A stretch of DNA of 33,773 nt from Lophium mytilinum (Eukaryota), in NCBI GenBank assembly GCA_010093605.1, contig MU004192.1, positions 1,351,299-1,385,071 on the forward strand. Direction: 5' to 3'. The notes beneath the pieces were generated by a model. It ran no database searches. It was not told the origin of the DNA and worked only from the letters and a program-made list of their open reading frames with translations. Below, one piece after another: positions 5,931 to 33,773 of the stretch (position 1 is the stretch's first letter; each line of letters starts with the position of its first letter). A program made the translations under genes and the position numbers.

Positions 5931-5969
5931 TTCTAGTTAAATTTAGTTAGCTCTATATAGAAACTTATA

Positions 5970-10560: not shown

Positions 10561-11379
10561 AAGAGTAAGGTTAGAGTTAGGTTTTACTTGCCGGCCTGCT
10601 TAATTATTAGTAGAGAAGGTAAAGGTCTTTACTAGCTATAATATAACGCGCGTCTGCCGGGTAAAGCGGGTTTATAGCCTTAGCTTAGGTAATAGATAAT
10701 ACTGCGTGGCTTAAGGAGTTAGATAGTTAAGGTAGACTTTATACTATTATAAGAGGGCGATAATCTCTAATTATAATTAATTGTATTAAGCGTTAGAGGT
10801 AATAGAGTAGAAGCCGCGGGCAACACCGGGCTCTATAAAGGGCGGTCTTCTAGCGTTAGGGCCTAAAGGTAAAGAATAATATATACTACTTTAGAATTAG
10901 AGAAAGAATTTAGGTCTATTAGACGGGGTGGTAGGTCTACTAATAGAATGCCTCTTAATATTATTAGAAATGTAGCCCCTAATATTAGCCACCCTAGGTA
11001 TTACTTTAAATAGTTTATAGGGCGTAAATCTTAACTAGTACAACTAACTTATATATACCTGCGCGGTATTTAAATAAGTAGTAGCTCTACTTAATAAGGA
11101 GGGGTGTAATAGAATTAAGACGGGTAAGGTAATATAAGTAGCGGGCTAACTCTAATTATAAAAGGGAGATATATATAATCTCTAATTATAATTAATAATC
11201 TATAAAAGAGAAGGGTTAAGCGCATAGATAGTAAGAAAAATTAAATTGCTAGTAATTAACTTATATATTAACATTTTTAAAACCCTATTATACTTTATAC
11301 TTAAATATAGATGCTATTATAGAATAAACTACTATATTTAGGGGTCTAGACTAACTATATATACCGCCTACTATATAAC

Positions 11380-12511
11380 TTAAGTATACTTAAAAGGAGC
11401 CTTCTGCCCGCTATCCTCTATCTCTATATTATCTACCTCTATCTCTACTTTAGTATTACCTACCTCGCCTACCTCTATCTCTATGTCCTCCTTCTCTATG
11501 TTATCTGCATTAGGCTTAAATTCTAACTTAAATACTTTACTTATCTCTAAATTAGTTCTATAGTTAGTAAGTTCCATTATATATAGATTAACTAAGTGCT
11601 AAAAGTCCTCTAGATTAAAAGGCTTTAGTAGGTTACAGTCTAACTATTATTTATAGTTAATAATATATTGCATATAGATATTGCTTAAGAGGTTTTAAAG
11701 TATTATTAACTAGTTAGCTATATTTAGTTAGAGCGGGTCTAGACTAGTATACTTATCTATAAGGCTAGCGGATCCGCAATCTATATATATTGTGGCAGAA
11801 GATAATAGTTATAGGCTAAAGTATTTATTAGTATTTAGGTCTATATAGTAGACGCGACTATATATATAGAAGAATTTTAGAAGGGTAAAGGTTAGCGTCT
11901 TACCTAGTAACGCGTATATATAAGCATTATAGATAATAGAGTCTTAATAGTATTACCTAAACAGCTAGAAAAGGGATATTATATTAGCGGGTATCTATAG
12001 AAGAGGGGGTACTTACTTACCTCTTTAAGTAGGCTAATGCTTGCTAACTCTTCTAGATAATTTATCTTAGTATTATATTTTATAGCGTAGGGCTATAAGA
12101 GAATTACATTCTAACCGCGTATAGATGGGTGCAGCTTTAATTAATAAAACACTTATTCTATTAGCTTAGTATTATTAGCTAGGACGTTATATAGCTTGCG
12201 GGTGTTAGTTTAATAGGGCTAAAATGCGGAGTATTATTACTAATATACTTAAAGTTATAGAGGTAGAAGATATTCCCCTCTTTAGACGTGTACGCTCTAG
12301 TAAAGGTAGAGGGTATCTTATAGTTCCGACCTAGTTTAAAGAGAGGTTTATCCGCGTCTAACTAGACTAGAATAGGTAAGTATAGTTTAAGTATATTAAG
12401 GTCTATACCTTGCACCTCTATCTTATAGTATTAACCCACTAGAAAGCGGTTTATAACTTAACTATAGCCTAGAACCTCTAGTATAGATAATATACTTACT
12501 ATAGGCGCTAT
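11380..12511 (-). pseudogene. Spliced hypothetical gene with a D/E-rich C-terminus, copy 2
   Basis: The frame starts at ATA(ATG)-GCG-CCT at 12511, has a GTAAGT...GCTAAT...CTAG intron near 11965..12020, and runs into the supplied ORF 11380..11577. The K/N/I residues of that ORF de-RIP to E/D/M. No family was recognised. Confidence 0.6.
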
Positions 12512-12800
12512 TTAGGGTTAATTACTATAAAGTATTAAGGAAAGAAAGTAATTAGAGGGTAGTAAGTTTAAGTAGCCGGTAAATTTAATTAGGTGGCTGT
12601 TATTAGTAAAGGGAAATAGGTAAAGGTGGCGATATGCGATTTTAAAAAGTAAAGTAAGGCAGCGCTAGCAGGGTATACTGGCGTTACCTAGTATTATAGA
12701 AATTATATAGAAAAGTACGTAGTTATTATCTTGCGTTAATTAGCCTTAGAGGTTAATAAAGCTAAATAATGCTTAATTATCTCTTAATAGTAGGGAAAAA

Positions 12801-15800: not shown

Positions 15801-16294
15801 TTAATAGACGCCCCTGCAGGCATACCTAATTTAGTAGAGGGATATACTTCCTCTTATAGTAATAACGTGGACGATATTATTAGTCGGCCTTATTAGTGCG
15901 GAACGTAGAATTTAGTAGCCTCTAGCGGGTTATTATATATTAAGCTTATAGGGCCTCTATTTATAGAAGGCGGACTCTAGTACTCTTTTAGTTTACTAGA
16001 GATATATAGCTCTATTTTATTTATCTTATACTCTATCTTATTACAGGGGTTAGCTAGTAGAGGTAGACTTACTAGTAGTAATCTAGGCGTTTTAAATAAT
16101 ATCCCGTCTATTATTTAAATAACGCGGAGTATATAAGACTAGATTATAGATCTAGTAGTTCTAGTATTAGTAAGCGGGACCCGCTATAGCATTTTAAGGA
16201 GCTTTTTACAGCACAGTATATATTTATTTAGGGCGCTAAGTATTTAGAATAACTTATAGTAGTGTTTATATTTAGTAGAAGGTATATACTCTAT
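12801..16294 (-). pseudogene. Plavaka-family transposase (RIP pseudogene), copy 2
   Basis: The SADKTQL codons are still intact at 15205..15225. NNYI(D)(W)D(Q)YNTLY lies at 13062..13100. A zinc-finger-like (C)KH(C)xKxFxxLxALNK(H)xLxC lies at about 16207..16275. The intron is at 15698..15776 with its donor RIP-mutated to ATAAGT. Confidence 0.93.
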
Positions 16295-16861
16295 TTCTAG
16301 TTAAATTTAGTTAGCCCTATATAGAAACTTATAGATTGTAAGTAATTATTATAGATTATATTAGATTATAGGCTAGTATACAGCACTTATTATTCTTTAA
16401 TAGTACGCGACGTGTTCTAATAGGGGGCGGGCCATTCTATTAGCCTGGAACCTTAATGTATCTACACATTAAAGACTATAGCTTACTTTTTTAAACCGCG
16501 ACCCTAAAGCCTATATATAATTATTTCTATTATTTCTATATTCTTTATAGCTAGTATAAACCTTTATAGTAGATGTAGTTTTAAGCGCATACTAGTAGTT
16601 ATATCTAGTTTCCCTAGTTCTAATAGTATAGCGTATGTTAAAAGTAAGCATTACCTCTTACTAATTTCTAGTATCTAACTTCCTGCCGCAGTTACTAGCT
16701 ACGGCGAAGAACTCTTAACTCTAGGCGAGTGCTATCTAGGTAACATAGAAGAAGATACTAAGTCTAAGCGCGTTACTCCCTTCTATAAGATAAGCGCTGG
16801 GCGGCGATGCATTACTAGTCTAGTAGAATAGAGTTAATAGGCATCTACTAAGAGTGCTGGC

Positions 16862-17356
16862 GTTATTAAGAAGATAGCCGCTAGGGCAAGTACTAGTTGT
16901 AGGACGGCTGCAAGATAGTAATATTAAATGCGCATTAAGCAGCCTAGGTTAAACTCCGCGTCTCTCTTAGCCGGCGCAAAATTAGATAATAGCTAGGAGG
17001 CGCTAGTTAGGTAGGGAGTTTTATAATATTACTAATTTGGCCGCTTAAGCCTCTTGCACGCGGTAGAATTAGCGGCATATATATTAGCAACGACTGCGCT
17101 TAATAAGAATAAGATAGATAGAGAGTAGACAACTTATAAGAACTAGTAAGTAGTAAGGGTGGAGGACTATCTTCTTGCGGATTATAAGAGTGCTTAAGCC
17201 TTTTTTTAATAGTCTATACCGCGCTATTAGAAGTAGGTTAAGTCCTTTAGCTACTTTTATAATAATACCCCGGTAAAACTCTAGGCCCTATTCTATACTA
17301 GGTTAATAGGGAAGCTAAAGAATTATTAAGCCCTTATTAATAGTGCTAGAAATTAG
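16862..17356 (+). pseudogene. 5'-truncated copy of the hypothetical gene at 32625..33599
   Basis: The frame VIKKxAARAST...ALINSARN* matches the 3' half of the 32625 gene. Its 5' half is replaced by unit U sequence. Confidence 0.7.
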
Positions 17357-17530
17357 GCTAGTAGATATTTAGCCCTAGAAAGATATTAGCTTATAGGCTA
17401 TATATATTACTATCTAGTATTTATATATATAACCTATAGTAAATATAATAATAACTTAGTATTTTAAATTAAGTATATAGGTATAGAAGACTTCTAGATT
17501 ACTAACACCTCTAAATTAGTAGCGGGGATG
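16864..17530. repeat. Direct repeat copy V1 (partner 33107..33773)
   Basis: The offset is a constant 16,243 from tattaagaag to agcggggat, with only transition differences. The partner runs off the window end. Confidence 0.97.
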
Positions 17531-17639
17531 CTGCCTCCCGTTTAAGTTACTGGCGCCTATAACTAGTGCTAGTAGTAACTCTTATACTATAGTCTACCCG
17601 GGCCGCCCGCAGGATGTCTAATTATTTTTAATTATTATT

Positions 17640-17909
17640 AATTATTTCTAATTATAGTGGCCCTCTACTACTTACTATATTTTAGCCGACGCTTTAGCTA
17701 TATAGTTCTACATTCTCTAGCTAAGCTTATCTTTACGCGGATTCTACGGTCCGCAATTATCTTACGCGTTTAAGTTATTACTACTATTACTATCTCTATT
17801 AAGAAGCCTAGCGCAGTTCTTAAGGTCTAGAATAGCCTTATAGATATAATCTAAGATAGTTAGCCGCCGGCGTGTTAATTTATTGTCGCCCAAGTATAGC
17901 GTATAGGTA
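17640..17909 (-). pseudogene. Probable exon of a small hypothetical gene
   Basis: A CTAAC...ACAG acceptor at about 17910..17922 is followed by the frame TYTLYLGDNKLTRRRLTILDYIYKAILDLKNCARLL... Confidence 0.35.
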
Positions 17910-18142
17910 CTGTCTTAGTTAGTATTATTATCTTTACCGGTGTTACACTTAGAGTAGAAGTTATTACTTCTATTATAGCTAAAGGCGGAGTAGTAATAGC
18001 TAACTGCTAGGTAGCTGCTTACTTTATAATAGTTAATAGTGCTATTAGCAATTAGTTCTTAGATAAATATAGTAAAACCTCTAGCTATATAGTAGTCTAT
18101 ATAGAAGGTTAGACTATTAATATAGTAGACTTTAGCGGCGTT

Positions 18143-20150
18143 CTATTTATCCCCCTCCGCACTATCGCCAGCCTTAGCCCGGCCAGCCTTAAACTTGTCT
18201 AGTACCTTAGCGTAGTACCTAAGAATATTCTTAATATTATATTTACTATGCCCTTCTAGTCTACCGGTTATCTTAAAGTTATAAACTTGCTTAACCGCAA
18301 CCTATGCCAACTTAAATAGGAATAGAAACTAGTTAGAGCGGCCTTAGTAGAAAATATTAATAGCGTATAGTCCCTCTAGTAGTGTATAATCCTCTATTAT
18401 TAGAACCTAGTACTAATCTAGATATATATAAAGGGGCTTAGTTGCGTTTATAAAGCCCTCTACTATATTATTTATTATATTTACTACATTTAGCGTTATA
18501 GGTAATACTATAAGTATTTTAGTAGCTATATTATATAACACCTTATAAAACTCCTTATAAGTCTAGGCGTTAACCCGTTTCTATAATAAGTTAACTAGTA
18601 TAGTACGCCGGGCGATGTTTTTATATGCCGTCTAAGTAGCATACCGGCGCTTATTATCTAGACTTCGCTCCTCTATATTAGGAGTAGTAACCTTAAAATA
18701 GAGAATATAATCTAGGTCTATATACTTACTTAGAGTATTAATAGAAGAGTAGGTATAGTAGTTACGCTAGGGTATTAGTAGGTGCTTTATAATTCTAATA
18801 AATAGTAGATTAGTTTAGGTAAGAAGTTTAGCCTTCTATAACTCTAGAAGTGGAGGTATAGTTTATAGTAGGTTTAGAGGCTACTTAAGGCTGTGAAATT
18901 CTCTAGCTTATACTTCTATAAACGCTAACTTCTCTAGAGTATCTAGCGTAGATATAACTAGATGCATCTAGGCGAAACTATCTATTATTATAGCCTTAAA
19001 CTTCTTATTAGTGCAGACGGTGTTAAGCGGAGAGTCTACTTAGCTATAGAATATAATCTAGTATAGCTTATTAGTATATAGTAATCTAAATACTAGAACT
19101 ATAAATATAAGCTATATTTATAAGGCTAGACTTCTATTAGCTAATTCTCTATAGATTATATATAAGATAATAGGTATATACTATTTAGAATATAAATTCT
19201 AAGGTAGACTAATATAAGACTTATGCTTATCTTAGACCCTTGCGTAGTAAATGGCGTCCTATATTAACCTCTTGCGGGGTTCTACTAGCTTAGCGGGGGT
19301 GGCCGGTTGGGTTGGAATAATAGTAAGGAAGATAGGGACCTCCGCTAGCTCTTTACTAGCGGTCGCGTTAGTATTACACCTAATTATCTAGCCTTTAAAT
19401 AAGGGCGGTAGGTGTTCTTCTAGAATCTTAAGAACCTTAAGGGTGCCCTTAATAGTAAGGTTATAGCGGTACTTAGGCTTATTTATAGAGGCTACCTTTT
19501 ATAGTTTACGCATGTCTAGATTAAAATAATAAGAGTAAGTGTACTATTATGCACCCGGTATATTAGTAGGTAGGCTAGAGCGCATCTAAGTAGAGATTCT
19601 AAATTGGCACTTAATTATAACTTGCTTTAGTAGCTCTTAGTCTTATAGCGCCTTAGTAAGCTTTACCGCACAGGTGGCATTAGGTATAGTTATTAGAATA
19701 ATAGTAAGGGCGTAGGCGTCTATTACCTCTATTTAGCCTTCTAAGATTAGAATATTTACTATAGAATTAAGTTAGTATTTAGTATATCTCTAGCGCTTTT
19801 AGAGGTTACTATATTTCTCTTTAAAGGTTACTATAGACTTAGACCTATTAGTAGACTATATTATAGTCTTTTAAGTAGTAAGTATCTTCTTAAGTTCTAC
19901 TTTCTATAGTTTATTTAATTTATTTCTTATAACTAAGATTTCGCGTATACTATATAGAAGATTAAAGAATTAGTTAGCGCCCTTAGAGTAGAGTTAGAAG
20001 AAGGGCTTAGTAGCAACCTCTCTATATATAGATTAGTCTATTAAGTCTAGATACTACCGCGTATAAGCTAGACTTACTACTTAGTCTCTATTTAAAGTAT
20101 ATTAGCCTTTGCTATTCTAGACTATATATTACTATTGGGCCTAATATATT
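18143..20150 (-). pseudogene. Large hypothetical gene (over 500 codons, at least one intron; 5' end approximate)
   Basis: One de-RIPable frame runs from the CTAAC...ATAG acceptor at about 19759 to the stop at 18143..18145, with an upstream exon at about 19810..20050. No family was recognised. Confidence 0.6.
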
Positions 20151-20644
20151 TAAATAGTTAGTTAGTATTAGTATAGGTAGATACGCTTATATTCTAAATA
20201 AAATAGTTAGAGTTAGAGGAGAGGCTGTAATTTAATAGCGAGTAGGTTATTAAAAGAGTTTAGGGCTTTAGTCTAATATGCGCTGGTAGTATATTAGCTA
20301 TTATTATAGAAGGTGTAAGTTACTATAGTAGTAGCTGCCTTCTAGAGGGTTAGAGTTAAGGCTAGTATAATATTGGGCTAATAATTAGATTAGAACTAAG
20401 TACTATTATATCTAGTAAGATATTAGTTACATTAAGAGGCTTTTATCTAAACGCGTATCTAATAGCTAAATTACCTAGTAGAATGCAGGTACTATATAGT
20501 AGTTAATTAGTCCCCTAAATATCTAAGTATTACCCTATTATCTTTCTTATCTACTTCTAACCTGCCTCTACTAATTTTAAGCTATACTTAAGGGTTAGCC
20601 TTATAGTATACTATAATAGGTAAATCTAAGTATTACTAATCTAT

Positions 20645-21079
20645 ATATATTCTAGAGGCGTAGCCTATAAGATATAACTGCATAATTCTACTACTTCTAG
20701 AAAGGCTAAATCTGCAAGGAGAAGCGCGCTAACCCGGTTATTAGAGCGCGAGCTGCAAGAGATAGAGAGAGAGCGGAAACTACTAAGTAGAGCCTCTAGA
20801 AAGCGCTGCCTAGAGCAGCGGAGGGCTATAAGAGAGAGAGATATATAGGCTAGTTAAATGCGGACTATAGTTAGCCTAGCGCTAGCGGGGGTAAGTAAGT
20901 AGATAAGGAGTATAATAAATATATAGGTGGGTAACGCTAGTCTTCCCGGGCAGGTTAAAGTGGGCGTTCTCTATATAGAGGCGGTGTGCGCGCTAGTAGA
21001 GGGGCTAGAGGGTAAGGGTGCTTATTTAGTAAGGGAGGAAGTAGGTAAGTAAGCTATTCCGCGGTATAAGCTAAATTAG
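20645..21079 (+). pseudogene. Small basic/helical hypothetical ORF
   Basis: The frame reads SRKAKSARRSALTRLLERELQEIERERKLLSRASRKRCLEQRRAIRERD, with about 50 codons free of stops. Confidence 0.4.
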
Positions 21080-21639
21080 TAATACTTATAAGAAGAGTAG
21101 ATAGTAAGAAGATATATAAATTAGTACTACTACCTACTAGCTTATAGGGCGCAACTTTAGTAGATAATAAGCTACTATTAGAGGTAGAGAGGCGCGCAGT
21201 AGCTTAGGTAATAATAAGTAGTACAGTACCTTCTTAGGTAGCTGCAGCTAACTTCTCTTTCTATTCTAAGGACCTTAACTTATTAGCTACTAATCTAGTA
21301 GAGCTTACAACGCTAACTTAAATAATAGGGGGGGGCACCTATATATAGAAATTAGCCTTCCTCCCTATATTAACTAACCTAGGTAAGTAGAAGGTAATAT
21401 TAGATAGAAGTTATTGCTAATTTATTAAGTATTACTAAAAGCTAATAGGTATAGATAAATATTAAGGTAGAGGCTAATTATTACTAATTATTAGATAGTG
21501 GAGTTTTTTAAGCTATATAACTCTTTACTTCTATTATATTATAATATAGCCCGTTTACTAATTACATACTTAATTATGCGCCACTTTAAACTTTACCTTC
21601 TATCTAGCCTTTTAATTCTAATTCTTATCTACTATTCTT

Positions 21640-21740
21640 ACCTATCTTTCCTCCCTTATCCTCCTCCTCCTCTATCTCTCTCTTCCCTCTCTCTCTCCTT
21701 CTTCTCCTCCCTCCCTTGTACGCTAACTTCCTTCTCTACG
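21640..21740. repeat. Pyrimidine-rich (CT/CCT) low-complexity tract
   Basis: The sequence cctcctcctcctctatctctctcttccctctctctctccttcttctcctccctccc is directly visible. Confidence 0.8.
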
Positions 21741-22122
21741 CCTTAGGCTTGCCTGCGCTTACTATATTTCTAGTACTACTCTATAAGTACTTCTTTAATA
21801 GACGTTGTACCTATTTAAAAGTATAACTAAGAGTAGCTACTTCTATTACTAGCGCGCGCGGATTTATATATCTTCTACTATAGTTACCTTATTTTTTAAC
21901 GCGCGCGATCCTAAGGTTAATTATACTGCGAGTAGTGTCTACTATTATAACTTTATAGGTAAGTAACTATCTTACTTATTACTTACTATTACTATTTATC
22001 TAATATTATTAGCCTCCCGCCCGCCCTCGCCCGTATTGCCGCACAACGCCATTCCATCTACTAACTCTATCCCCTTCTATCTGCCTTCCTTATACCCTAA
22101 CTCCTTATCTTGTTTGCCCGAC

Positions 22123-25100
22123 ATAGCTAAAGGATTAGGTTAATATACTAGTTGCTAATAACGCCTTCCCAACAATTAAAATAATAAGGAGTTTAACCTA
22201 GATAAATAGTTATTAAGTATAGACTCTAGTTAAGTAGACTATAATAGTAATTTAAAGCTGGACGAGCTAGATAACTACTATAGCCGCCGGCCTCCCTATA
22301 GTAGCCGCTAACGCTCTAGACCTGCTTAGGGGAAGGCTATAATACTTCTAGTAGACCTGCTACATAATACATCTTTATAGAGTAAGGCGGCATCTAATTT
22401 TACTAAGAACTCTAAAGGCTACTTAAGTTAAATAAATATTATAGCCGGCTTAGGTCTAGCTTCTAAGGTATAGCGCTAGATAGAAGCCAACTTATTTATA
22501 CTAATAGAGAACTCTAAAGCGTACCTATAGGTAAAACGTCTCTTATAACTAGGCTAAAATAACTATAGTAAGAATAACGCCTACTTAGATACTTAGTCTA
22601 AAATATATACGCTTTTTATAGATATATAGAGTTGCATATTTAAAAAGTCTTCTATATTAGCTAAGTAGAAGTAAGTATATTAAATATTAATCTAGCATAA
22701 AGTCTATAAGAAATATAAGATGCGGGGTAGTATTATTAAAAGTAATAAGAAGTAGAAGCAGTCTAAGTTAGCCTTGTCCGCGAAGTTAGTTGTATTAGTA
22801 GGCCTTAGCTCTCTAATAAAATCCCTAGATATTGCTGCCTAAAATGCCCTATTTAAGCCCCGGCTGTTGCACGCGGTCCTTACTATAATATACTAGCTGC
22901 CGCAGCGGGAAAGCACTAGACGCCTTTTTACTCTCTATCTTATAAGGTCTAGCAGTAAAGGCCTAGAGCTAGAAGACTATAGCTTTATAAAGTTTCTAGA
23001 AGCTATTAATAGAACTTTTATAGACTTTAACCCTCTTAAGTATATTATTATAGTTAATAGAACCTAGAAGTTAATAGAGAATAACTTCTATCTAACTATG
23101 CTATTAAAGAAAATAAAGAGTATACCTAAAGAGATAGTGCTTAGTTTTATAGTAAAGGGCCTTAATATTAGAAAGGCGATATCTAAACTTAAGACTAGAT
23201 GTATATTAATTATTATTAATTATTAAATATTACTACTAACTAATATATAGCTAGGTCTGCACTTTCTTAAGTTCTCGCCCCCTAGTATCCGCCCGGCCAA
23301 GAAACGCCCCCGCCGCAGTAAGCCTAAGGCTGCCGCGGCTAAGAGTCTACCTAAACCTACCGCCGCTAATACTCTAGATAAAATAATTATTAACTTAACT
23401 ATAAGTCTATATATATATATAGCTAATATAGATAGGGTTAATTCTACCGCGGAGTAGAATAAAGGGGAGAAGTGGAAATAGCTGGCAGATATAGCGAAAG
23501 CAGAGAGAGAAAAGAAAGAGAAAGAGAAGAAGGAGAAAGAGTTGGCGGAGAAAGAGCTGGCGGAGAAAGCGCTAGCAGAGAAAGCGCTGGCAGAAATAGC
23601 AAAAGCAGAGAAAGAAAGAAAGGAGAAAGAGATAAAGGAGAAAGAGATAAAGGAGAGAGAGCTAGCAGATATAGTAATAGCGGAGAAGGCTAAGAAGTAG
23701 ATAGAATAGAAGGAGAGAGAGCTAGCTAAGACCGCAACTAAAGAGAAAGCAAAGAGGTAGAAATAGCTAGAAGAGGCGGCGGAGTAAGAGGAATAAAGAA
23801 AGTAGAAACTACTAGTAGAGAAGAAGGTATAGAAGCTATAAATAGAGAAGAAAGCGTAACTACTTTAATAGATGCTTAATATTATCTAGCTATATACTAA
23901 GTTAATGCGTAATTCTATTTAGCCTAGTATTATCTATAATAAGGTTATATAGTAGCTTAGGGCGCTTAGGCCTAGAACTACTTAGTACCTAACTGCCTAA
24001 AAATAACTCTATGCGCTTATAGTTACTATAAAGAGCGGCTAGACTATCCCTAGTAATATCTAAGTTGCGGGGGATATAGTAATTAGCAGTATTAATATTA
24101 CGGCTACGCTTAAATTTAATATATATAGTCTTAGTAAGACTAGACCCTCTATAGATATAAATAAGATAATTATAGCTAATATAGAGAAGGTAGATGCTAT
24201 TAATATTACTACTATAATAGCTCTAATATTAAGCTCTATAAAGAATATCTTAGTAGCAGTGTTTAAGAAGATGCTATAGTTTTTTAGTTTGCCTTTAATG
24301 TATAGGAATTTTTCTAGTAATGCAACCTTTAAGCTGCTAGGAATAACTACTAACCTAAAGATGCGTGCAGCCCTATACTAGGTGGCCGGGACGTATAGTA
24401 TTATCTAAGGTCTCGCTGGCAGGGCGCGTAGGCTAATTCTTGCAGACCCCTCTAGAATAGGAAAAACTCTATAAATATTAATAGCATTTACTACTTATGC
24501 TAGAGAGGCTAGCACTAATGCTCCGCGTTCTAGTAGTGTTAAAGGCTATATTATTTAGCTTACTAAGAAGAGTCTACTAAATTAGACCTATAAGGAGGTA
24601 AAATACTAGCTAGATATTAAATATAAGAATAAGAATTTTAAGGTCCCTAGTAGAAGACTTTATATCCGGCGTATATATAGAAGCATTATAGAGGGTAACC
24701 TTACTTCTAAAGACTAGAAGAACCTTAGGCCTATCTACTAAGAAATAAATAGTCGGGTGTAGTATAAGCTAAATCTAAAAGCAAAAACCTACCTTATTAT
24801 TACAAGCGCGGAGACCTTTAATAAAAAATGTAATAAGAATTTAAACTTACTAGAGACCTTTATAATATTCTATAACCTATTATATAGTAATAAAGTAACC
24901 CCTATATATATATATAGGGCCGTTTTTTTTAATAAGTTCTACCTAGGATTTAATAATATATCTCTATATATTACGGCTTTTAGCTATATTAAATCTATAC
25001 AGTGTTAGCATACATTCCGCCTAACTACGCGTAAATGGGCAAATATTAACTATACGCTTAATCGGGTTTATTAGGGCTAGGACTTAGAAGGGTTTAATAA

Positions 25101-26580
25101 GGCTGCTAATCTATATAGTTACTCTAAAGGCTTATTCTATAGCGGGACTTCTTTTCTCTACGGCCCTAAAACTCTATTATATTTAATAGTTATACTATAT
25201 AGAGGTTTATAGACGCTAACTTAAATAGCGGACCTAACTAACTTAGACGCTAATATTAAAGACAACCCGGATAATACTCTTCTAGATAAGGAGTTAAAGA
25301 AAGAGAATATAGATAAAGGGGATAAGTTTAATATTTTTTATTAAGGCCCTACCCTCCGGCGTGTTAATTAAGGAGACCTTATAGGGGCTAGAGGTTACTA
25401 CCTCGCCTTAAAAATAGAGAAAGAGTAGCAACTATAGAATAATTCTAAATTGTCTAGGCGTCTCTAGAGAGTATTAGATGTAATTATAGCTATAAGTATC
25501 TATAGAACGCTAATAAGCCTTAGCCTAGATAGCCTTCCCTTAGGGGATATGCCGCTCTATATTATATAGTAGGTAATAGTTAGTATACCTAACCGCTTTA
25601 AACCCTTTATTAAGGAGTACTATATAGTTATTAAAGAGAGATATATAGACCTTAAAGAAGAGTATAAAGAATAGCTAAGGTATAAAGTAGTAATTAATAA
25701 GCCGCCGCCTTTCTTTAGCCTAGGCGCCTTTCTAACGGGCTCGGGCAAGGGAAGGCTGCCCTGGATTTTTATATTAATTCCTGGGCTAGCTAAGTTAAAG
25801 ACGCAATAGGAAGAGCTTAGCTTAATAAGTAACCTAACCTTTACTCTAGAAGATATTAAAAATGCGGGCTAGATAGATTATATAGACTTAGAGAGTACCC
25901 TTACTAAATAGTATACTAACCTACTAGCTAATTTAGGGAAGCTAAAGAAGATTAGGAGCATAGTTTAACACATTTAAGCTAAGAAGAAGAAGATACTAAT
26001 TATTAGTAAGGAGCCTATAGTTAATTTAGTTATCTGCATTATAAGTTGCTACCCATCTCTATCTATAATTGGCGATTATTATCTAATAAACTAATATAAT
26101 TAATACTAGATAATTATAAAAACTATACTAACTAAAAAGCTTGCATAGTTATATTTATCGCTAATAGTTAAGTAATAGAAGTAATTTAACACTGGCTTTA
26201 AGCGTAATTAAGATGATCTAGCGGCCGTTAATATTCTAGTCGCAAACTAGAAGACTAGAGAAGTAGAAGGCTCTAACTTTACTTTTTAATATATGTGCGT
26301 AATAGTTATAGAGCTATAGACTGCATCTAGCCTTAAGGTATAGATTATATCTAGAGTATGGCGGAAGAACTAGAGGTCTAATAGAACATGCAGTATTATT
26401 CTTGCCTATATAGGGGGTAATAACCTAGTAGATGCGCTAGCTTAGTTCTATGCAGTTAATAATAATAAGTTTATATATAAGGTTATGTAAAGTGTACTAA
26501 AAAAAAAGGAAAACTAAGGAACTATTAGTACTAAGGTAACTACTAAATATACTAATTATATAGTGTATATAGTTCTATAG
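22123..26580 (+). pseudogene. SNF2-family (SF2) ATPase/helicase-like gene, about 1,400 codons, RIP pseudogene
   Basis: The motifs are ordered and in frame: (H)(Q)VAG; motif I LILADPS(G)xGKTL(Q) with GKT at 24460..24468; motif Ia KSLLx(Q)TxxEVKx(W)L at about 24568..24612; motif II VFF-NKFY, de-RIP DEFH, at 24931..24942; motif III YSGTS at 25138..25152; SIxRT...LGDMP; GKLKKI...KxLIIS at about 25936..26006; motifs V/VI EGSNFT...VxE(P)(W)...(Q)IxSRVWRKN(Q) at about 26265..26373. Introns are at about 23201..23250, 23401..23434 and 26041..26109. Confidence 0.85.
23533..23667 (+). repeat. 15-bp coding repeats (EKELA/EKALA/EKEIK) forming an E/K/A-rich coiled coil in the SNF2 gene
   Basis: gagaaagagttggcg, gagaaagagctggcg, gagaaagcgctagca, gagaaagcgctggca, then gagaaagagataaag twice, all in the same frame as the ATPase motifs. 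Confidence 0.88.
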
Positions 26581-27914
26581 TAGACATTATAAAATAAACT
26601 ATTCTAACTTCTACTTCTATAATACACCTGTAATCGCCGCATTAATAAGTATACTATATCTATAGTAGGTCTACTATAGACTGCCTATTTTTAATATTAA
26701 TATAATCTACTTAACTATATACTCGCCGCAAGGCTTAGGTATTAGCGGTGCGAGCCTTAAATGCAATTTAAGGCCTAAGTATTAGTAATATAAACTATAG
26801 CATTATATAGGTAAATATCTATATAGCGGCGCCAATGCTCTATAGGCCCGCATATATTATTAGTAATATTCTTGCACGTTATAAGGCATAGAAAGGTTAT
26901 AAGAACCCTCTATCCTACTCTTCTAATCTAGACCGCAGGATGTTAGTAGCTAGTATGCGTTTAATCTTGCTTATATTTCTAATAAAGAGATTTAAATAGA
27001 GTAGCCTATAAATTAGAGTGCACTATAGGCCTATAGTAGTATAATTTAGTGCCGTATATATATACTAGCTAAAAGAAAACAGGTAGAAAAGTATATACTT
27101 ACTAATGCTAAGCCCTTTCTAGCTACCTATATTTTAATATACTACTAACACCACGGCTAATTAAATGTAGAGATAAGTTAGGTTAGTTTTAAGATAGTAT
27201 AATATATTTATATGCCACTCTATAGCTAATTTAGACGCTATCTATTTATAACCTTTCTACTTAATTTAGAAAATACTCTAAAATACTATTATATTTATTA
27301 CGCTTCTTAATATATTTAAGTCGCTAGAGAAAGTATATATTCCTAGTCCTAGCTATTATATAAATTAAATAAGAGTATCCTAAAATAGGCGTGTAGGCCT
27401 ATACTCTTATAATATTAGTATCCCTATACTATATATAATTAGCTAAAGCCCTAAAGCATTATAACGGCGCCCTATAATAACGTTAATAATTATAAAAAAG
27501 GGAGCACCGCCTAAGCATACATTTAGATAAATAAACCGGGCCGTTATATAGTAATAGTTAATAATAGAGCATTATTTATAATTATCTCTAACACTTAAAT
27601 GTATAAATATATTAGGCAGCAGCATAAAATATAGAATTTTCAGCCCAATACTAAACTATCTAGATCTTATACTAATAACTTAATAAATGCTGGGTTACTA
27701 TTAATGCGAAGGGGCTTTAGTTTCTTCTTAAGAGAAGAGGTAGTATAGGTATTCTATTAATTACTATAAAATAGTTACTGCTAAAGTAGCTAATTTAGTT
27801 ACGTAGACGCAATAAGAGTCTAGTCTTAGCACCCTATTATCTAAATACGTATATAAATTAACTCTAACTTTACCTTTTCTACCCCTTCTACACCCTAAGA
27901 ATTGTTAAACCGTT

Positions 27915-28676
27915 ATGTTGTTAGATAAATAAGGCTAGTTTCTAATACCTAATAACCTTAAGCTAGACTCTAGAAATAAGCTTATATAGGGCCTTAATAT
28001 TAGCGCCTGCAAATACAACACGCTATATACCGCGATAGAGACTAAGATAAAATTAGTAGACCTACTAGGCGGATCCCTCTACTTAAAGATAATTAGGGGG
28101 ATAGTATAATCTATAATAATAGACATTATAAAGAAGTTTTCTAAAATGCTTTTACGCGTTCTACTTAAAGAAGAATATAAGTAGATATTAAAACTTATAT
28201 AGTAATACAACTATAATAAGAAAAGATAAGATTATATTAACGCGTCTTATTATTCTAATTCTATAGATACTCCGCCTACTAAATAAAATAGGACTTTACC
28301 GCACCCTAAATGCTACCGCAGTTCAGCGCATATAGAAATAAAGTTAATATTAGTAAAGTAGCTAGGTAGTAAGGCCGCCCGCATTATACTAGTATATAAA
28401 CTTGCACCACCCACGCTACTAAAGAGTATGCTAGTAATACTGGCCCCTAAATTTAGTATACTTGTTGCTAGGTTAAATATAATATTTAGTCTTAATATAG
28501 AACGCAAAACTATATATTACTATATTATAGATAATCTTAAGTTTCTAGTTAAGAATAAGGTAGACTAGTATATAGTAATAGTGCATTAGAGTTTATTAAG
28601 AGAACTAGACTATATTACCCTAATTATTAAGCCTTAGCTAAATAGTATATTAGACACATGCAACGATTTTAATTAA
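27915..28676 (+). pseudogene. Hypothetical gene of about 250 codons
   Basis: An intact ATG at 27915 follows a pyrimidine-rich leader, and a single de-RIPable frame runs to TAA at 28674..28676. The supplied ORF 28313..28507(-) is its antisense shadow. Confidence 0.6.
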
Positions 28677-30038
28677 TATAGCTAACGTAGATAGATAACA
28701 CCCCTGTATCTATCTACTCTAGCTAGCACTATGCTATTCTTCTACCTATACCTATATTAGCCTCTGCTAGTTATAAATGCCTGCGTAATAAGATAAATAA
28801 GTAAGAGATTAGAGCTGTAGAAAAAGTTAAAAAGAATATAAGAGTTATATAAGAGATAAGAGTATAGAACTATAAAAGGTAGAGAACTTAGATAGCGCAA
28901 GAGTCTATATATCTAGCTAACCTAATTTATAATTAGACTATTCTATAGCCCGCCTTACTAAGAGAACTAGACTAGAACTACACTATCCTAAGGCGGGGCC
29001 TTATTATAACCTTATACTATCTTACTAGACTAGAATATAGACAGCTTAATATCCCTATATATAGGTAGTATAGAGTTATCTAAACTATAGCTATTATTAG
29101 AACTAGAAGTATAGCTATATAGCTAAATATTCTAACTAGATATATAGATTCTATAGGGGGGGAATTTACTACTAGCAGACTACCCTTCTATTCTTCTATC
29201 TAGGGACCTCTCTACTATAGAGGAGTACCCTGTAATATAGTATATAACCGCTTATAGCATAGTAACTAATAGAGGGCCGGAATTATAGAAAGAAGGCCTA
29301 AATAGTAGTAAAGAGAATGTTTTAGGCTAAGAGAGAGGAGAATATAATAGCTTAAGGTTACGCAATTTAGTTAGTAAAGGTAGAGGCGTTTATTATAGAT
29401 AATATAGAAGAGGGATATATACTATAGCTAGAGGAGATAGCTAGCGGGTTATTTGCGCCTAAGTAGGTTGCCCGACCGGGGATAAAGTTAGCGATAAGGG
29501 GACGGCTGCGCGTTGCGACATTAATACCTCTATTAGGGCCTCTAACTTAGCCAGCTATCTATCTAATAATATAGAATATAAAGTCTATAATCTCTTAACT
29601 AACTACTATTCTAATAGCGTAGGAGATACTATCTAGAAATAATAGCGGGAGGTGGCAGCGCGCGTGCAGTAATTAGTAGAAGTTAACGCAAGTGCGCAAG
29701 TATAAGCTCTAGTCTAAGGCGATATAATAGGAGAGGTAATTATATAGATAGAAGTGTTTAATTATATAGAATAATAGGGCTTTATTAAGGGGGGGATAGA
29801 GAAGAGGTATATAACTAGCTAAAGATACTAAGTTAACGCGTATAGACTGCATCCGGCTAGCTCTATTACATCCTATTATAATAAACGCGCGACTTACTCC
29901 CTCTTTATTCCCTTCTCTCTACGCTACTTAATTATAATCTACTTTACTTCCCTTTATAGTTATTATTCTTGCACTCTACCTTAAGAAATAGAACGTTCTT
30001 TTACTACACGCCCCCTATCTATTATTTAGTAAGGCTTA

Positions 30039-32376
30039 ATGTTACCTACTTAAATATAGTAAAAGGTAATATAGAACTATCTCTCTCTACCCTAAATAGG
30101 GACTTACTATATAACTTAAATATACTATACTATATACCCTATCTATAGTATATATTAATATATATATAGCTAATGCGTATAACTATAGATAGTAAAGAAG
30201 TAAAAATGCGCTGCCTTAAAACTAATTAACACAGTAACGCGCCTAGCTCCCTTAACTCTAACGCCTGCCAACTAATAATAAATATATAGAACTTAATAAG
30301 TAAAAGAGAATATACTACTAGGATATTCTAAGATAGTAATGCTATATTATCTTGGCCGTCTAGCCGTACCTTATCTCTTGCTAGAAAGAGAAAACGCGGT
30401 ATAGAGGACGAGAACAGGCACGCGCCTATCTTTTAATCTAGTAATACTAACTTCCGCGTGTAAATAGACTTTAAGTATAAGATTAGCTTATATATATATT
30501 ACGGCCACTCTACTAAGTAGTGCATGCTAATAAATACCTATTAGGGTGCCGCTGTAGTCTAAGATAAGATAGCGGCTAGAATAGAAGCCTGTAGAGCCGT
30601 TAACTAAATAACTAGGTCTAATACCTTTATATTAAGCGGTCTACTATTCTCCTCTTCTACTAGCCGCTTCTTAGGTACGGGTAGAGGTACACCCGTCTAT
30701 AACTGCATTAGCTCCCTTAGCATAAAATAATATAGTAAAATAATTTAGATATAGAATAGCGTAGATAGGCATGCTAAAGTACTAACTATAGAGGTAAAAT
30801 ATATAGTAGTAAAAGAATAAATAAGATACTAGATACTTAGAAGTATAGTATTAGGCACTAATATAATTAAGGAATATAGTAATAACCTTATAGCCTAGAC
30901 TAAGAGTGTTAGGCTAGATATATTTTAGTAAGTGCTAATATAAATATAGGTAGATGTCTATAAAGACTAACTATTCTATACTTAAGCTAATATCCCTACT
31001 ACTCTAGACCCTTTTTACGCGCGGAAGGTATATTACTCTCTCCCCACTCCTATAACCTTATATAATGGCTAATTATAATATATAATCTAGATTTATAATA
31101 CTTTTAGTTATTTCTATAATACTATAATAAAGGTTGCTTATAATATTATGCAAGAATGCTATAGTCTTAGTTCTATAACTCTAGATATTACCGGCACCGC
31201 GTTAACACTAATAAAGGATTGGAACTATCTCTTTAGGGCAGATAAAGACTAAGCTAAGGTTAGTTACTAACCTAGCATTAGACAGCATTCTAATAGATTA
31301 TAGGGGCCACCGGTAATCTTTATAGCTGAGGCTATCTAGGTAGTAGTTATAGACCTACTCTTTATAGGATAGTCTATAAACGCCTTAGAAATATAAAGAT
31401 ACTTAAAAGAGTTTTTTAACCCCCTTTTAGGTAATACTATTATATATATATATACTTGCCTCTACTATACTATTAGTAAATATACCTTGGGCTAGAAGCG
31501 CATAAACCTAATTTATAGGGTTGCCGCCACTAGTATTAACTACCGCCCCCCTTATATAAGACTATACTAACTACAAGCTGGGGTAGTAAATTATAATAAA
31601 TGTCTTGCCTAATAGCGGGCACTTAGCTTACGCCGCGAGCACTAACTATTATCCTACTAGCAAGAATTTATTATAAAATAGGTAGGTCGGCATATAAACT
31701 ATAAAGAAGATAATAATAAGAATATATATAATAACCCCAACCGCTATAATATATTAGATTTAACTAAAGATATAATACTGGAATAATAATAGGCCTTTAC
31801 CGCGAGAGTGGCAAGAATAGAAGTAAAGGAGCGGGATTGGCAGCGGAACCTTATTAACTAACGCAAGAAGACACGTGCGCTAATAAAGCGCATTAAGAGC
31901 GAAGCATAACTATTTAACTCTAGGTACTTGTCCTTACTATATTTAATTCCATCTAGCCCCCCCCTTAGGGATACTTTATTAAATATTATAGATAGTATAG
32001 GTAATTGCATAAGGCAGAGAGCTAAAGTATAATATACTAATTATATTAACTATAGAATAATAAGATTAATAATATAGAGCCCCTTACTAATAATAACTTA
32101 TACTACTTAGCTCTAATTTATAGGGAGGCTAAGGAGAGTGTTAAGATAAAGGACTACTAGAAGCGGTGCCCTCTTAATCTCTTATTTATATAATTTAGGC
32201 AGCGGTTCTATATAAAGGAAGATAAATACGGCTGGTATAAAAATAATACTATAATTATGTCTAATAAGGACTAATATTAAAAGTTTATAGCTGCCTGCGT
32301 TAAGGCATAGGATTCTAGAGAAGAAAGCCTGCGGCTAGTTATTAAGTTGCTTAAAAGTATTAGGGATAAGAAATAG
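30039..32376 (+). pseudogene. Multi-exon gene with an NLS (RKRKR) and a DUF6532-like domain
   Basis: There are at least 5 introns (e.g. AAG|GTATAT at about 31028, AAG|GTTAGT at about 31259). Exons 31091..31640 de-RIP to VAxxxMQECYxL...LxKDWNYLF...IFxAEAIxxVVxDLLF...EFF(D)PL...YTCLYxxIS(E)YTLG, which resembles the DUF6532 motif order as recalled, not as searched. Confidence 0.5.
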
Positions 32377-32624
32377 TAGCATGGAATTAGTAAATAGGGT
32401 GTAAGTAGGCTCTATTTTATGCTTAGCGTTATCTTTCTATTTTATAATATATGTACCGTAATTAGATGCGTTCTAAATTACTATATAGTCTACTATCTAA
32501 CGCGCAATATATATATTGCGTGCTATTCCCTAGCCTAGATATCTAGCGCACGCGTTACTGGCTCTAATAGTCTACTAGGATATTAAAATTATTAAGGTTA
32601 GTAATAGTTATATAATTCTTAGAA

Positions 32625-33599
32625 ATATGTACAGGCATTACTATCTATATAACGCATAAAGTCTATAATGTATGCAAAGTTACTATAGACTATAAAGCCC
32701 TAGCGGAGGTAGTAAGAAGGGATAACTAGATATACTAGTGCAACTTTAAATTTCTTACTACACGCGATAATTATATATTTAGTGTATAAGGCCCCATCTA
32801 CGTTATTATTTATCTATCTACAACCTAGGCGGATTAGGCAGTTTTAGAAGGTTAGATAGAGGAGGTAGATAGCTACATTTATAAGGACTATAAAGTAGTT
32901 ATTAACTATAATAATTGCCTATAATGCTAGATTATCTATAATTAAGAATTATCTACGCAGCCTGCGCGTAAATTTTATATAAGAAGTGGGTAAACTTTTA
33001 TAGAGTGGCGTAAAGCCTGCAGAGCGGTAAAATATATAGTCTTCTAGAAGGTTATATAAGTAACTAGTATTCTCCGCGCGTTTCTTAATTTAGAAATTTC
33101 TAATATTATTAAGAAGACGGCCGCTAGGGTAAGTACTAGTTATAGAATAGCTATAAGATAGTAATATTAGATACGCATTAAGTAGCCTAGGTTAAACTCC
33201 GCGTCTCTCTTAGCCAGCGCAAAATTAGATAATAGCTAGAAGGCGCTAGTTAGGTAGGGAGTTTTATAATATTACTAATTTGGCCGCTTAAGCCTCTTGC
33301 ATGCGGCAGAATTAGCAGTATGCATGTTAGCGATAACTACGCTTAATAAAAATAAGGTAGATAGAGAGTAGATAACTTATAAAGACTAGTAAGTAGTAAA
33401 GGTAGAGAACTATTTTCTTATAGATTATAAGAGTACTTAAGCCTTCCTTTAATAGTCTATACCGCGCTATTAAAAGTAGGTTAAGTTCTTTAGCTACTTT
33501 TATAATAATACTCTAGCGAAACTCTAGGCCCTATTCTATACTAGGTTAATAGAGAAGCTAAAGGATTATTAAGCCCTTATTAATAGTACTAGAAATTAG
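32625..33599 (+). pseudogene. Hypothetical gene of about 325 codons, Cys/His-containing N-terminal half
   Basis: The frame (M)CTGIT...HKVxxVCKV...CxxC...EWRKACRAVK...LEISNIIKKTAAR continues in frame across the repeat boundary at 33107. Confidence 0.6.
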
Positions 33600-33773
33600 G
33601 CTAGTAGATATTTAGCTCTAGAAAGATATTAGCTTATAGGCTATATATATTACTATCTAGTATTTATATATATAATCTATAGTAAATATAATAATAACTT
33701 AGTATTTTAAATTAAGTATATAGATATAGAAGACTTCTAGATTACTAATACCTCTAAATTAGTAGCGGGGATA
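33107..33773. repeat. Direct repeat copy V2 (partner 16864..17530), truncated by the window end
   Basis: Same alignment as V1. Each copy has RIP changes that the other lacks. Confidence 0.97.

Follow-up and report, generated by a model that had tools for sequence, protein, structure and literature searches.

What kind of element is a 16.2-kb stretch of DNA that begins again as soon as it ends, and what could have multiplied it? The question is raised by a locus of Lophium mytilinum, analysed here over 33,773 nucleotides (the window, numbered from its first base). A first-pass annotation had described the block as at least six densely packed genes around a divergent SNF2 ATPase, with no recognisable mobilising enzyme, and had offered three options: an undescribed kind of large mobile element, the accessory half of a giant Plavaka/CACTA-type transposon, or a tandemly amplified cargo block.

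Results

The restart that had been noticed after 16,243 bp is confirmed by a direct repeat of 667 nt (16863-17529 and 33106-33772) with 91.9 % identity and a start-to-start spacing of 16,243; all 54 differences are transitions, and the repeat spans 16857-17530 in a transition-blind (purine/pyrimidine) comparison. This restart is the head-to-tail junction between two copies of one 16,242-bp repeat unit, C (16864..33105, plus strand). The left edge of C is set by the start of this repeat together with the end of a second repeat (A/A'), and its right edge is the base ahead of a 1-nt spacer and the restart. The next copy, C' (33107..33773, plus strand), is cut by the window end, which leaves 667 of its approximately 16,243 nt inside. 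The A/A' repeat, which abuts C, is the larger of the two and had escaped the first-pass annotation together with the transposase relic that it carries: positions 1-6509 recur at 10365-16872 with 94.0 % identity, and 388 of the 391 differences are transitions. It delimits another unit, E, present as a 10,362-bp copy, E2 (6501..16862, plus strand), which starts with TATTAGGAAAAC and whose length matches the period of 10,364, and as an earlier partial copy, E1 (1-6499). The order in the window is therefore E(partial)-E-C-C(start). No internal sequence common to C and E was found, even in a transition-blind comparison.

The whole window is saturated with RIP. Each of the 16 two-kb bins has a TpA/ApT of 1.60-2.06 and a (CpA+TpG)/(ApC+GpT) of 0.17-0.44, far past the customary thresholds, and the GC content is 0.28-0.37. 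Within the A/A' repeat, an A lies next 3' in 103 of 173 C<->T differences and a T directly 5' in 134 of 215 G<->A differences, so that transition-only divergence, CpA->TpA bias and skewed indices all mark a RIP-affected repeat. To survey copies, contigs of two runs from the same sample of the same organism (X1 and X2) were compared with 13774-33773 at a likeness of at least 80 %; these contigs, of about 300 nt, are too short to show a solitary C with unique flanks or to tell dispersed copies from an array. Matching pieces numbered 4527 in X1 and 4727 in X2 and covered 30 of 30 bins, every part of C included, with up to 20 different contigs over one position. The X1 pieces ranged widely in identity (1029 at 99 % or more, 1500 at 95-99 %, 1509 at 90-95 % and 489 below 90 %), and their variants comprised 1641 transition places and 7 transversion places. 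Because diverged variants lie over every part of it, C is multicopy in the genome and not a single local duplication. The first-pass annotation was thus right on RIP and on copy number, and the lone local duplication for which it had allowed is excluded.

The unit that adjoins C directly contains the relic of a Plavaka DDE transposase. In E2, a region on the minus strand (14526..15459) matches the corresponding Pfam family, PF18759, in two frames, with E-values of 1.5e-12 (47.8 bits, profile positions 34-216) and 1e-7 (31.9 bits, positions 191-325). The E1 copy (4162-5092) matches with 7.7e-9 and 5.9e-7, and the Pfam cut-off of 26.3 bits is exceeded in both copies of E.

The termini of C may point to the same family. 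C starts with TATTAAGAAGAT (16864..16875, plus strand), a member of the 12-mer class TATTARRAARAY, exact copies of which occur in the window only at 6501, 16864 and 33107, the starts of E2, C and C'. Exactly at the other end of the unit (33097..33105, minus strand) lies a sequence with the reverse complement TATTAGAAA, which matches the 5' ends of both C and E in inverted orientation over 9 nt and is compatible with a RIP-mutated ...TTTCCGACA; TATTAAGAAGAT and the reverse complement of the 3' end, TATTAGAAATTT, make up a 9-nt inverted repeat. The terminal inverted repeats of PlavakaA run 5'-TGT..ACA-3' with the consensus TGTCGGAAAAATCC, and its ends are given as TGTCGGAAAAATCC ... TTTTTCCGACA (PMC12730594 supplement). 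Both ends of C can be derived from TGTCGG.AA.. by C->T or G->A changes, and the 12-nt start of C and E can be read as a PlavakaA terminal repeat altered by RIP. These repeats are only 9-12 nt long and AT-rich DNA makes such patterns common, so their weight lies in their position alone. By our count the PlavakaA-end pattern, with at most 2 mismatches, has 23 matches in 67.5 kb over both strands, which gives a rough estimate of about 1e-3 for the chance of such a match, correctly oriented, at a single boundary chosen beforehand; in the window neither the 12-mer class (23 matches versus 16.2±3.9 expected) nor the RIP-degenerate PlavakaA pattern (134 versus 152±13) is enriched. Past 12 nt, no similarity deeper into the unit ends was detected, the best of 15 end pairs being reached by 7 % of null pairs. 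The 3' end of E (..CCGGCG) matches the repeat over just 6 nt and has two G bases where PlavakaA has A, which RIP cannot produce.

We regard it as roughly an even call that C is a giant transposase-less partner element of a Plavaka family, dead today but formerly mobilised in trans. C would then be one copy of a very large, high-copy, RIP-inactivated DNA transposon of the Plavaka lineage (the EnSpm/CACTA-related 'CMCT' clade) with no detectable transposase of its own. The transposase of the 10.4-kb unit E would have recognised the approximately 12-bp terminal repeat common to both units and cut and pasted C in trans, C would have been amplified to many copies, and RIP would subsequently have wrecked every reading frame. 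Among the three options raised at first pass, that of a Plavaka/CACTA partner fits best, given the adjoining Plavaka relic and the shared 12-nt start; the tandemly amplified cargo block is a less favoured possibility. What this reading does not account for is the junctions: all three are head-to-tail, with only T or TT between the units (..GGCG-TT-TATTAGG, ..GGCG-T-TATTAAG and ..CTAATA-T-TATTAAG), and any account of how the train arose would be conjectural. Target-site duplications are 2 bp in PlavakaA and 2-3 bp in PlavakaB (PMC12730594, in part); here the units abut without flanking host DNA, and a 2-bp duplication is not readable at the three junctions.

The junctions are also an argument for a different history, in which E and C would be parts of some larger composite or array in a region of RIP-degraded repeats, multiplied block by block through segmental duplication or unequal crossing-over; C would never have moved alone, and the shared short ends would be junction sequence carried with the blocks. 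The three junctions are indeed alike (a 6-nt RIP-compatible left side, T or TT, and the same 12-mer), none has a readable target-site duplication, like adjoins like (E-E, C-C), and the summed X1 depth of E (700-976) is similar to that of C (about 840-1600), although depth is not copy number. Furthermore, one X1 contig contains a second, more mutated genomic copy of the junction between the end of E and the start of C, an observation that fits block amplification as well as transposition. We nevertheless consider this history unlikely: the diverged variants across the unit, at up to 20 contigs per position, suggest a high copy number, as is more typical of transposition; at both its ends C matches, correctly oriented, the terminal repeat of a published transposon; and E contains the Plavaka transposase.

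It is quite improbable, in our judgement, that C was instead an autonomous giant Plavaka whose own transposase gene, on the minus strand near 27.9-29.4 kb, has decayed too far for profile searches. In a RIP-aware comparison of the Plavaka domain of E with C, the best place was 27894..29435 (minus strand), a possible second, very decayed Plavaka-like relic: it scored 47.9 bits over 7 collinear segments (query codons 4-301), whereas the reversed query scored 32.8 and none of 300 local shuffles reached the observed value, and the minus strand there has few-stop frames. However, 7 of 97 permutations reached 47.9 bits in a family-wise null, and random 20-codon segments score up to 24 bits in both orientations (2185 kept matches on the minus strand, 2173 on the plus). 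Pfam reported no Plavaka on 27597-29573 (minus strand) at E<=10, yet it detects the copy in E, where GC content and RIP damage are comparable; nor did 12 six-frame translations of C with stops read as X contain PF18759. The statement that the block has no mobilising enzyme thus stands for C, where none was detected, but not for the adjoining E, with its match to PF18759 at 1.5e-12.

The remaining gene content of C was sought in the same decayed DNA. Only 14 stop-to-stop frames of at least 70 aa exist in the whole window, the longest of 213 aa, and a Pfam profile search of 12 six-frame readings of 16864-33773 with X at stops returned 0 families. A transition-blind (transition-invariant) codon-phase test on C indicated one long ORF relic, about three others and 2-3 weak ones. 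The long relic (22696..26700, plus strand; about 4 kb, or about 1335 codons) keeps a constant transition-invariant codon phase (z=6.1) and has 81 stops in 1335 codons (0.061), versus 0.105-0.111 in the background and 0.083 in antisense; it comprises, in order, a basic/NLS-like stretch, a KE-rich repeat and the SNF2-type ATPase region. The KE-rich tandem repeat (23481..23726, plus strand; 15/30/105-nt periods) is of low complexity and raised profile scores spuriously in a decoy control. Further coding-like relics lie at 17500..18600 on the minus strand (z=5.0; 22 stops in 366 codons, 0.060) and at 30001..31500 on the plus strand (z=4.9; 33 in 499, 0.066). Of the six or more dense genes claimed earlier, the tests support one ORF relic of about 4 kb and about three more, with no Pfam family; the count of six, the splicing, the DUF6532-like gene and the small nuclear proteins found no support in them.

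The ATPase was assessed with a RIP-aware profile method of our own, whose rates (0.75/0.2) are unfitted, and an SNF2 HMM of 16 prokaryotic proteins (RapA and 15 plasmid genes). The putative N-lobe (24262..25206, plus strand) scored 62.1, compared with 38.8 for the reversed profile and 34.4±4.3 (maximum 46.9) for codon shuffles, none of 300 of which reached it. Motifs Q (24358-24408), I (24424-24468), Ia (24559-24585), Ib (24760-24846), II (25093-25131) and III (25168-25206), all on the plus strand, were present in order, motif I alone giving 22.8 bits. The whole helicase region scored 55.5 versus 32.8±4.2 for column-shuffled profiles (0 of 100 reached it), and a separate motif test agreed, its observed score being reached by 17 of 2000 shuffles and by none of 287 other windows. 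These results support an SNF2-type ATPase N-lobe in the largest ORF relic of C. For the C-lobe motifs IV, V and VI, 25900-26700 scored 28.5 against HMM columns 466-600, a value reached by 90 of 300 shuffles (27.0±3.7) and exceeded by the reversed profile (34.3); matches there are at eye level only, for example EGSNFTF at 26266 (10.5 bits). Searches with X-read pieces, a weak instrument here in that a word-index search likewise missed the true Plavaka domain, returned no Pfam family even at E<=10 (neither SNF2-rel_dom, PF00176, nor Helicase_C), just 9 chance antibody matches at E~1 in a PDB phmmer search, and, for the ATPase region, 0 matches at E<=1e-3 in an exhaustive phmmer search of 1.84 billion representatives. 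The divergent SNF2 ATPase proposed earlier is thus borne out in its N-lobe and lacks support in its C-lobe.

A large helicase-like ORF could also suggest another class of mobile element, namely an LTR retroelement (with an LTR of 667 nt or more), a Helitron or Starship-type cargo, and a long terminal direct repeat is compatible with the window because the second copy is visible for its first 667 nt only. This is very improbable: the 12 frame readings of C contain no reverse transcriptase, integrase, RNase H, Rep or DUF3435 tyrosine recombinase, and its helicase motifs (LADxxGxGKT, DEA) belong to the SNF2 type, not to the Pif1 type. Judged from the summed X1 depth, which is not copy number, the restart segment (474-681 plus 757) is not doubled relative to the rest of C (roughly 840-1600) and occurs about once per unit. 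The missing reverse transcriptase, RNase H and integrase and this depth speak against an LTR retrotransposon. Starships have a DUF3435 tyrosine-recombinase 'captain' at one end and a low copy number, and a many-copy state is atypical of them; against a Starship, no captain family was found in any frame of the window, and many variants per position are seen. It is scarcely credible, finally, that C arose when ordinary host genes, an SNF2 repair helicase together with the genes around it, were duplicated as a cluster and later hit by RIP. Hane and Oliver read X3X3R8 of Stagonospora nodorum in this way, as an endogenous gene cluster (PMC3017866, in part). Against such an origin of C stand its transposon-type ends beside a transposase unit, the lack of any ubiquitin-conjugating domain in its 12 frame readings, and the empty phmmer search, which means no intact close relative on record, unexpected for a core gene.

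Discussion

Since its termini are common to the neighbouring Plavaka-encoding unit, C is best read as a large form of a known kind of transposon and not as a new kind of element. In the CACTA elements En/Spm and dSpm, short (~13-bp) terminal repeats are common to the transposase element and its trans-mobilised partners, and a non-autonomous partner has usually arisen from the autonomous element by deletion. C and the transposase-encoding E likewise have short terminal repeats in common; unlike such pairs, C contains no internal sequence of E and is the larger of the two.

PlavakaA and PlavakaB are fungal DNA transposons of the CMCT clade, with consensi of ~8.5-8.9 kb for PlavakaA and ~24.8 kb for PlavakaB-1_GyCo, and the families described in the accessible text come from Agaricomycotina and Pucciniomycotina (PMC12730594). 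The units studied here resemble them in the PF18759 DDE transposase, in this case in the adjoining E, in termini that read as RIP-mutated TGTCGG(A/G)AA.. / ..CCGACA, and in large size. They differ in that PlavakaA/B elements hold their transposase inside, whereas the 16.2-kb C has no detectable one; the extra genes are TET/JBP there and SNF2-like in C; and here all copies are RIP-dead, have no readable 2-bp duplication and stand head-to-tail with 1-2 nt between them. The giant Plavaka of the red alga Bostrychia, of 17.4-19.1 kb with accessory genes PAG1-3 (bioRxiv 10.1101/2025.02.11.637652, in part), is alike in its 16-19 kb lineage, its very high and mostly degenerate copy number, and several accessory genes that are likely to act on DNA or chromatin. 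Those genes encode a methylase/SET protein and a ParB-2OG oxygenase, in contrast to the SNF2 of C, and the algal element belongs to a different kingdom, carries its transposase inside and is free of RIP.

By description, C is also like X3X3R8, a 26-kb RIP-affected repeat reported in 2010 from Stagonospora (Parastagonospora) nodorum, whose R8 occurs in 48 copies of 9143 bp and whose genes include Rad5/SNF2-like helicases, a Rad6-like enzyme and unknown ORFs (PMC3017866, in part): both are RIP-hit, multi-gene SNF2-helicase repeats with tandem sub-units and no recognised transposase. X3X3R8, however, has intact annotated copies with strong matches (E down to 0), whereas no intact relative of C was found; its Rad6-like gene has no counterpart seen in C, and the accessible text reports neither a Plavaka link nor terminal repeats for it. 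Cryptococcus KDZ elements (KDZ1, ~11 kb; bioRxiv 10.1101/2024.08.15.608186, in part) are likewise large cut-and-paste transposons of a fungus and carry additional ORFs of unknown function, but they belong to another transposase superfamily (KDZ), make 8-bp duplications, and are active, low-copy and without RIP. With giant Plavaka elements bearing accessory genes, and X3X3R8, already published, the undescribed kind of element that had been offered as one option finds no support.

As a partner element of the Plavaka family, C would have carried accessory genes that are now wrecks, the largest of them probably encoding a protein of ~1335 codons with a basic, KE-rich N-terminus and an SNF2-type ATPase. 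By analogy with accessory genes in other Plavaka elements, the role of this SNF2 protein may have been chromatin access or anti-silencing.

Repeat structure and RIP

Self-comparison of the window (33,773 nt) returned only two long direct repeats. In the first, 1-6509 matches 10365-16872 at 94.0% with one gap and a period of 10,364; in the second, 16863-17529 matches 33106-33772 at 91.9% over 667 nt, reaching the window's last base but one, with a start-to-start spacing of 16,243 nt. Transitions account for 388 of the 391 differences between copies in the first pair and for 54/54 in the second; in the first pair, A follows in 103 of 173 C-T differences and T precedes in 134 of 215 G-A differences. 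Across all 2-kb bins, TpA/ApT is 1.60-2.06, (CpA+TpG)/(ApC+GpT) is 0.17-0.44 and the GC fraction is 0.28-0.37. Both the restart after 16,243 bp and the RIP saturation described in the first-pass annotation are therefore confirmed, with only 667 nt of the second copy visible. RIP produces only C-to-T and G-to-A changes and so leaves the purine/pyrimidine sequence intact; a transition-blind dot plot on this reduced alphabet revealed neither additional internal homology nor long inverted repeats in the window. Searches for telomere repeat arrays and Rfam families came back empty. Tandem repeats lie in the 5′ part of the 10.36-kb repeat (unit E) at 7921-8057 (48 nt, 2.9 copies, 91%) and 9416-9566 (81 nt, 1.9 copies, 78%), and the sequence at 21624-21720, between coding-like segments, is CT-rich, of low complexity and repeats every 17 nt.

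Unit boundaries and terminal repeats

The end of the first repeat pair coincides with the start of the 16,242-bp repeat (unit C, 16864-33105, plus strand). The simplest layout is a partial copy of unit E (E1, 1-6499), a 10,362-bp copy that holds a transposase relic (E2, 6501-16862), unit C, and the start of its next copy (C′, from 33107), all in head-to-tail order and separated by T or TT. E1 begins at window base 1 and probably continues leftward beyond it. The junctions read ..ACCGGCG-TT-TATTAGGAAAAC for E1/E2 (6499/6501), ..GCTGGCG-T-TATTAAGAAGAT for E2/C (16862/16864) and ..TTTCTAATA-T-TATTAAGAAGAC for C/C′ (33105/33107). Exact occurrences of the 12-mer class TATTARRAARAY are confined to these three junctions, and the final 9 nt of unit C are an inverted copy of it. 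The 3′ end of unit E matches the terminal repeat in six bases only; the final six nucleotides of units C and E could share a common ancestor under RIP. By a rough estimate, the probability that a terminal-repeat match lies in the correct orientation at a single predefined boundary is about 1e-3. Terminal-repeat patterns are not enriched in the window, where such AT-rich patterns are common, and end similarity does not extend beyond 12 nt, so that the terminal-repeat evidence is positional. According to the supplement of PMC12730594, the PlavakaA consensus ends in TGTCGGAAAAATCC ... TTTTTCCGACA and makes 2-bp duplications of varied sequence; C-to-T and G-to-A changes could turn those ends into the ones seen here. 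No target-site duplication was readable at the three abutting junctions. A separate 3.35-kb element (6501-9853), suggested by an inverted 12-mer, TGTTAGAAAGAC, at 9842-9853 on the minus strand, is less favoured than the 10.36-kb unit E, because chance alone would produce 0.1-0.9 such inverted matches in the span (rough estimate).

Copies in public sequencing runs

Two public runs of one sample of the same organism (X1 and X2) comprise about 44-46 Mb of contigs, in which roughly half the words sampled from 20000-29999 occur. Contig pieces were aligned to 13774-33773 at a likeness of at least 80%. X1 gave 4527 pieces (1029 at ≥99%, 1500 at 95-99%, 1509 at 90-95% and 489 lower) and X2 gave 4727; together they cover 30/30 bins, and up to 20 different contigs deviate from the window at one position. 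Variant places in X1 comprise 1641 transitions versus 7 transversions. These data show many diverged variants along the whole length, that is, a repeat family and not a single local duplication; the earlier proposal that the gene set was multicopy is upheld. Summed contig depth, which is not copy number, is 474-681 in X1 over the restart segment, plus 757 on its second copy, and roughly 840-1600 over the rest of unit C. The depth thus indicates about one restart segment per unit and speaks against an LTR-like terminal repeat. The junction at which the first repeat pair ends and unit C starts is found again, with more mutations, in one X1 contig. X1 and X2 also each contain a contig in which 23254 is joined directly to 29294, with 6039 nt including the SNF2-like ATPase missing; this join, whose shorter side is only 23 nt, may reflect an internal deletion in a copy at another genomic site. 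An air-metagenome run (X3) yielded 226 pieces at 80-99% likeness on 13774-33773, of which 11 are at ≥99%, and the same or a related fungus was therefore probably in that sample; a run labelled as another organism (X4, RNA by guess) yielded 0 pieces on this interval. No RNA run containing the stretch came up among the public runs.

Coding content and the transposase

Only 14 stop-to-stop frames of at least 70 aa exist in the whole window. A six-frame Pfam search with X at stops found no family in 16864-33773, and relaxing the threshold to E≤10 for pieces of unit C read in this way (X-read) returned nothing. Pfam does place minus-strand relics of a Plavaka transposase (PF18759) in unit E, at 14950-15459 (E 1.5e-12, 47.8 bits) and 14526-14978 (E 1e-7) in E2 and at 4162-5092 in E1. 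The first-pass view that no mobilising enzyme is recognisable thus holds inside 16864-33773 and fails for the adjoining repeat: the enzyme adjoins unit C, outside those coordinates. Within the transposase relic, where the Pfam match changes frame, lies a unit of about 41 bp (4614-4654 and 14978-15018) made of two 14-mers that resemble the terminal repeat and point towards each other across 13 nt; a short intron, a transposition footprint or coincidence could account for it.

Codon phase was scored as the purine surplus at codon position 1 versus position 3. The phase is constant over 22.65-26.85 kb (z=6.1, 1335 codons), and stops in this frame number 81/1335 (0.061) versus 0.105-0.111 in all frames and 0.083 in antisense. 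This interval is the wreck of a plus-strand ORF of about 4 kb. Three more segments combine codon phase (z 3.9-5.0) with reduced stops, at 17.5-18.6 kb (minus strand), at 30.0-31.5 kb (plus strand) and, where the adjacent unit ends, at 16.38-16.90 kb; two or three others give faint signals. Even on the known Plavaka domain, z is only 1.6; the test misses real genes, and a missing phase signal is therefore no evidence against coding. The six or more genes of the first-pass annotation, their splicing, the DUF6532-like gene and the small nuclear proteins stay putative.

An SNF2-type N-lobe in the long ORF

A protein homology search with the X-read long ORF (22696-26700) scored 7998 candidates with 0 matches; this negative carries little weight, since the word-index search fails on the genuine Plavaka domain as well (0 matches from 454 candidates). 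Searching PDB with phmmer gave 9 matches, all antibody chains at E~1. Exhaustive phmmer of the X-read ATPase region found 0 matches, and an intact close relative is absent among 1.84 billion representatives.

Further scores allowed each codon its possible pre-RIP ancestors. A chain of seven SNF2 motifs of our own choice scored 42.5, which was reached in 17/2000 codon shuffles and 0/287 other windows; motif II, first placed by eye at 24922, was moved to 25093-25131. To avoid that choice of motifs, an HMM was built from 16 SNF2 proteins of prokaryotes, namely RapA of E. coli and the products of 15 plasmid genes. Against the whole ORF it scored 61.7 versus 43.0±5.2 for shuffles (0/200), with 384 other windows at or below 52.7; this result was discarded, as the reversed profile reached 61.4 and the column-shuffled ones 50.5±5.3 (maximum 66.1), the inflation being due to a KE-rich low-complexity repeat at 23.4-23.9 kb. 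With that stretch left out (24196-26700), the score was 55.5 versus 37.0 for the reversed profile, 32.8±4.2 for column-shuffled profiles (0/100 reach 55.5) and 30.3±4.4 for codon shuffles (0/100). The N-lobe (24196-25300 against HMM columns 61-290) scored 62.1, with the reversed profile at 38.8 and shuffles at 34.4±4.3 (0/300), and its motifs follow in the order Q, I (22.8 bits), Ia, Ib, II, III. The C-lobe scored 28.5 versus 27.0±3.7, a value reached by 90/300 shuffles. These comparisons support an SNF2-type N-lobe in the long ORF, the remainder being undetectable, so that the divergent SNF2 ATPase of the first reading stands for one lobe only. Directly before the KE-rich repeat, a basic, proline- and alanine-rich stretch at 23300-23420 (..PAKKRPRRSKPK..) resembles, by eye, a nuclear-localisation signal.

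Origin of unit C

The reading we favour, which we hold to be evenly balanced, is that unit C is a giant transposase-less partner element of a Plavaka family, moved in trans. The transposase encoded by unit E would act on unit C through the shared ends; unit C would have carried accessory genes, the SNF2-type protein being the largest, and would have been amplified before RIP destroyed its copies. Amplification of the E/C blocks by recombination is an unlikely alternative to this course of events. That unit C had its own transposase, now decayed, on the minus strand between 27.9 and 29.4 kb seems distinctly unlikely: RIP-aware comparison of this interval with the Plavaka domain gives 47.9 bits, but 7/97 family-wise permutations reach that value. 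It is very improbable that unit C belongs to another element class, and hardly credible that it is a duplicated host gene cluster.

Two bolder readings are, taken together, improbable. TET/JBP and VANDAL-type factors are anti-silencers; by analogy, a Plavaka family in a RIP-active fungus may have carried the SNF2-type remodeller as an accessory factor, opening chromatin or countering silencing. The uniform head-to-tail junctions are the most unusual feature of the locus. RAG/Transib enzymes, which are related to the Plavaka transposase, produce signal joints, and junctions consisting of an end, one or two T and a start, with no duplication, may likewise mark excised elements joined end-to-end and re-integrated as trains. 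In the favoured reading, movement in trans, the SNF2 protein's role and the way the head-to-tail train arose are inferred.

Among known systems, giant Plavaka elements with accessory genes (17.4-19.1 kb) are described for a red alga (bioRxiv 10.1101/2025.02.11.637652), and the supplement of PMC12730594 lists a PlavakaB family of about 24.8 kb in a mushroom. The literature covered, which lay outside subscription journals, describes no SNF2 gene in any Plavaka or EnSpm element. X3X3R8 of Stagonospora nodorum, a RIP-hit repeat of 26 kb that contains Rad5/SNF2-like helicases, was reported in 2010 and interpreted as a host gene cluster (PMC3017866).

DNA this RIP-mutated defeats ordinary searches, whether by profile or by sequence; signal can still be extracted from it by means of transition-blind codon phase and of RIP-aware scoring against profiles, with decoy controls. 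As all copies seen are dead, the consequence for the organism is one of genome architecture only, with no functional effect. If the favoured reading is true, Plavaka-lineage giants would have arisen also in a RIP-active fungus, where an SNF2-type ATPase took the place of the known accessory genes and transposase and cargo were split over partner units. This would be a further case of large cut-and-paste elements acquiring chromatin or DNA-modification genes, and would point to transposons as a possible source of RIP-hit 'helicase repeats' like X3X3R8.
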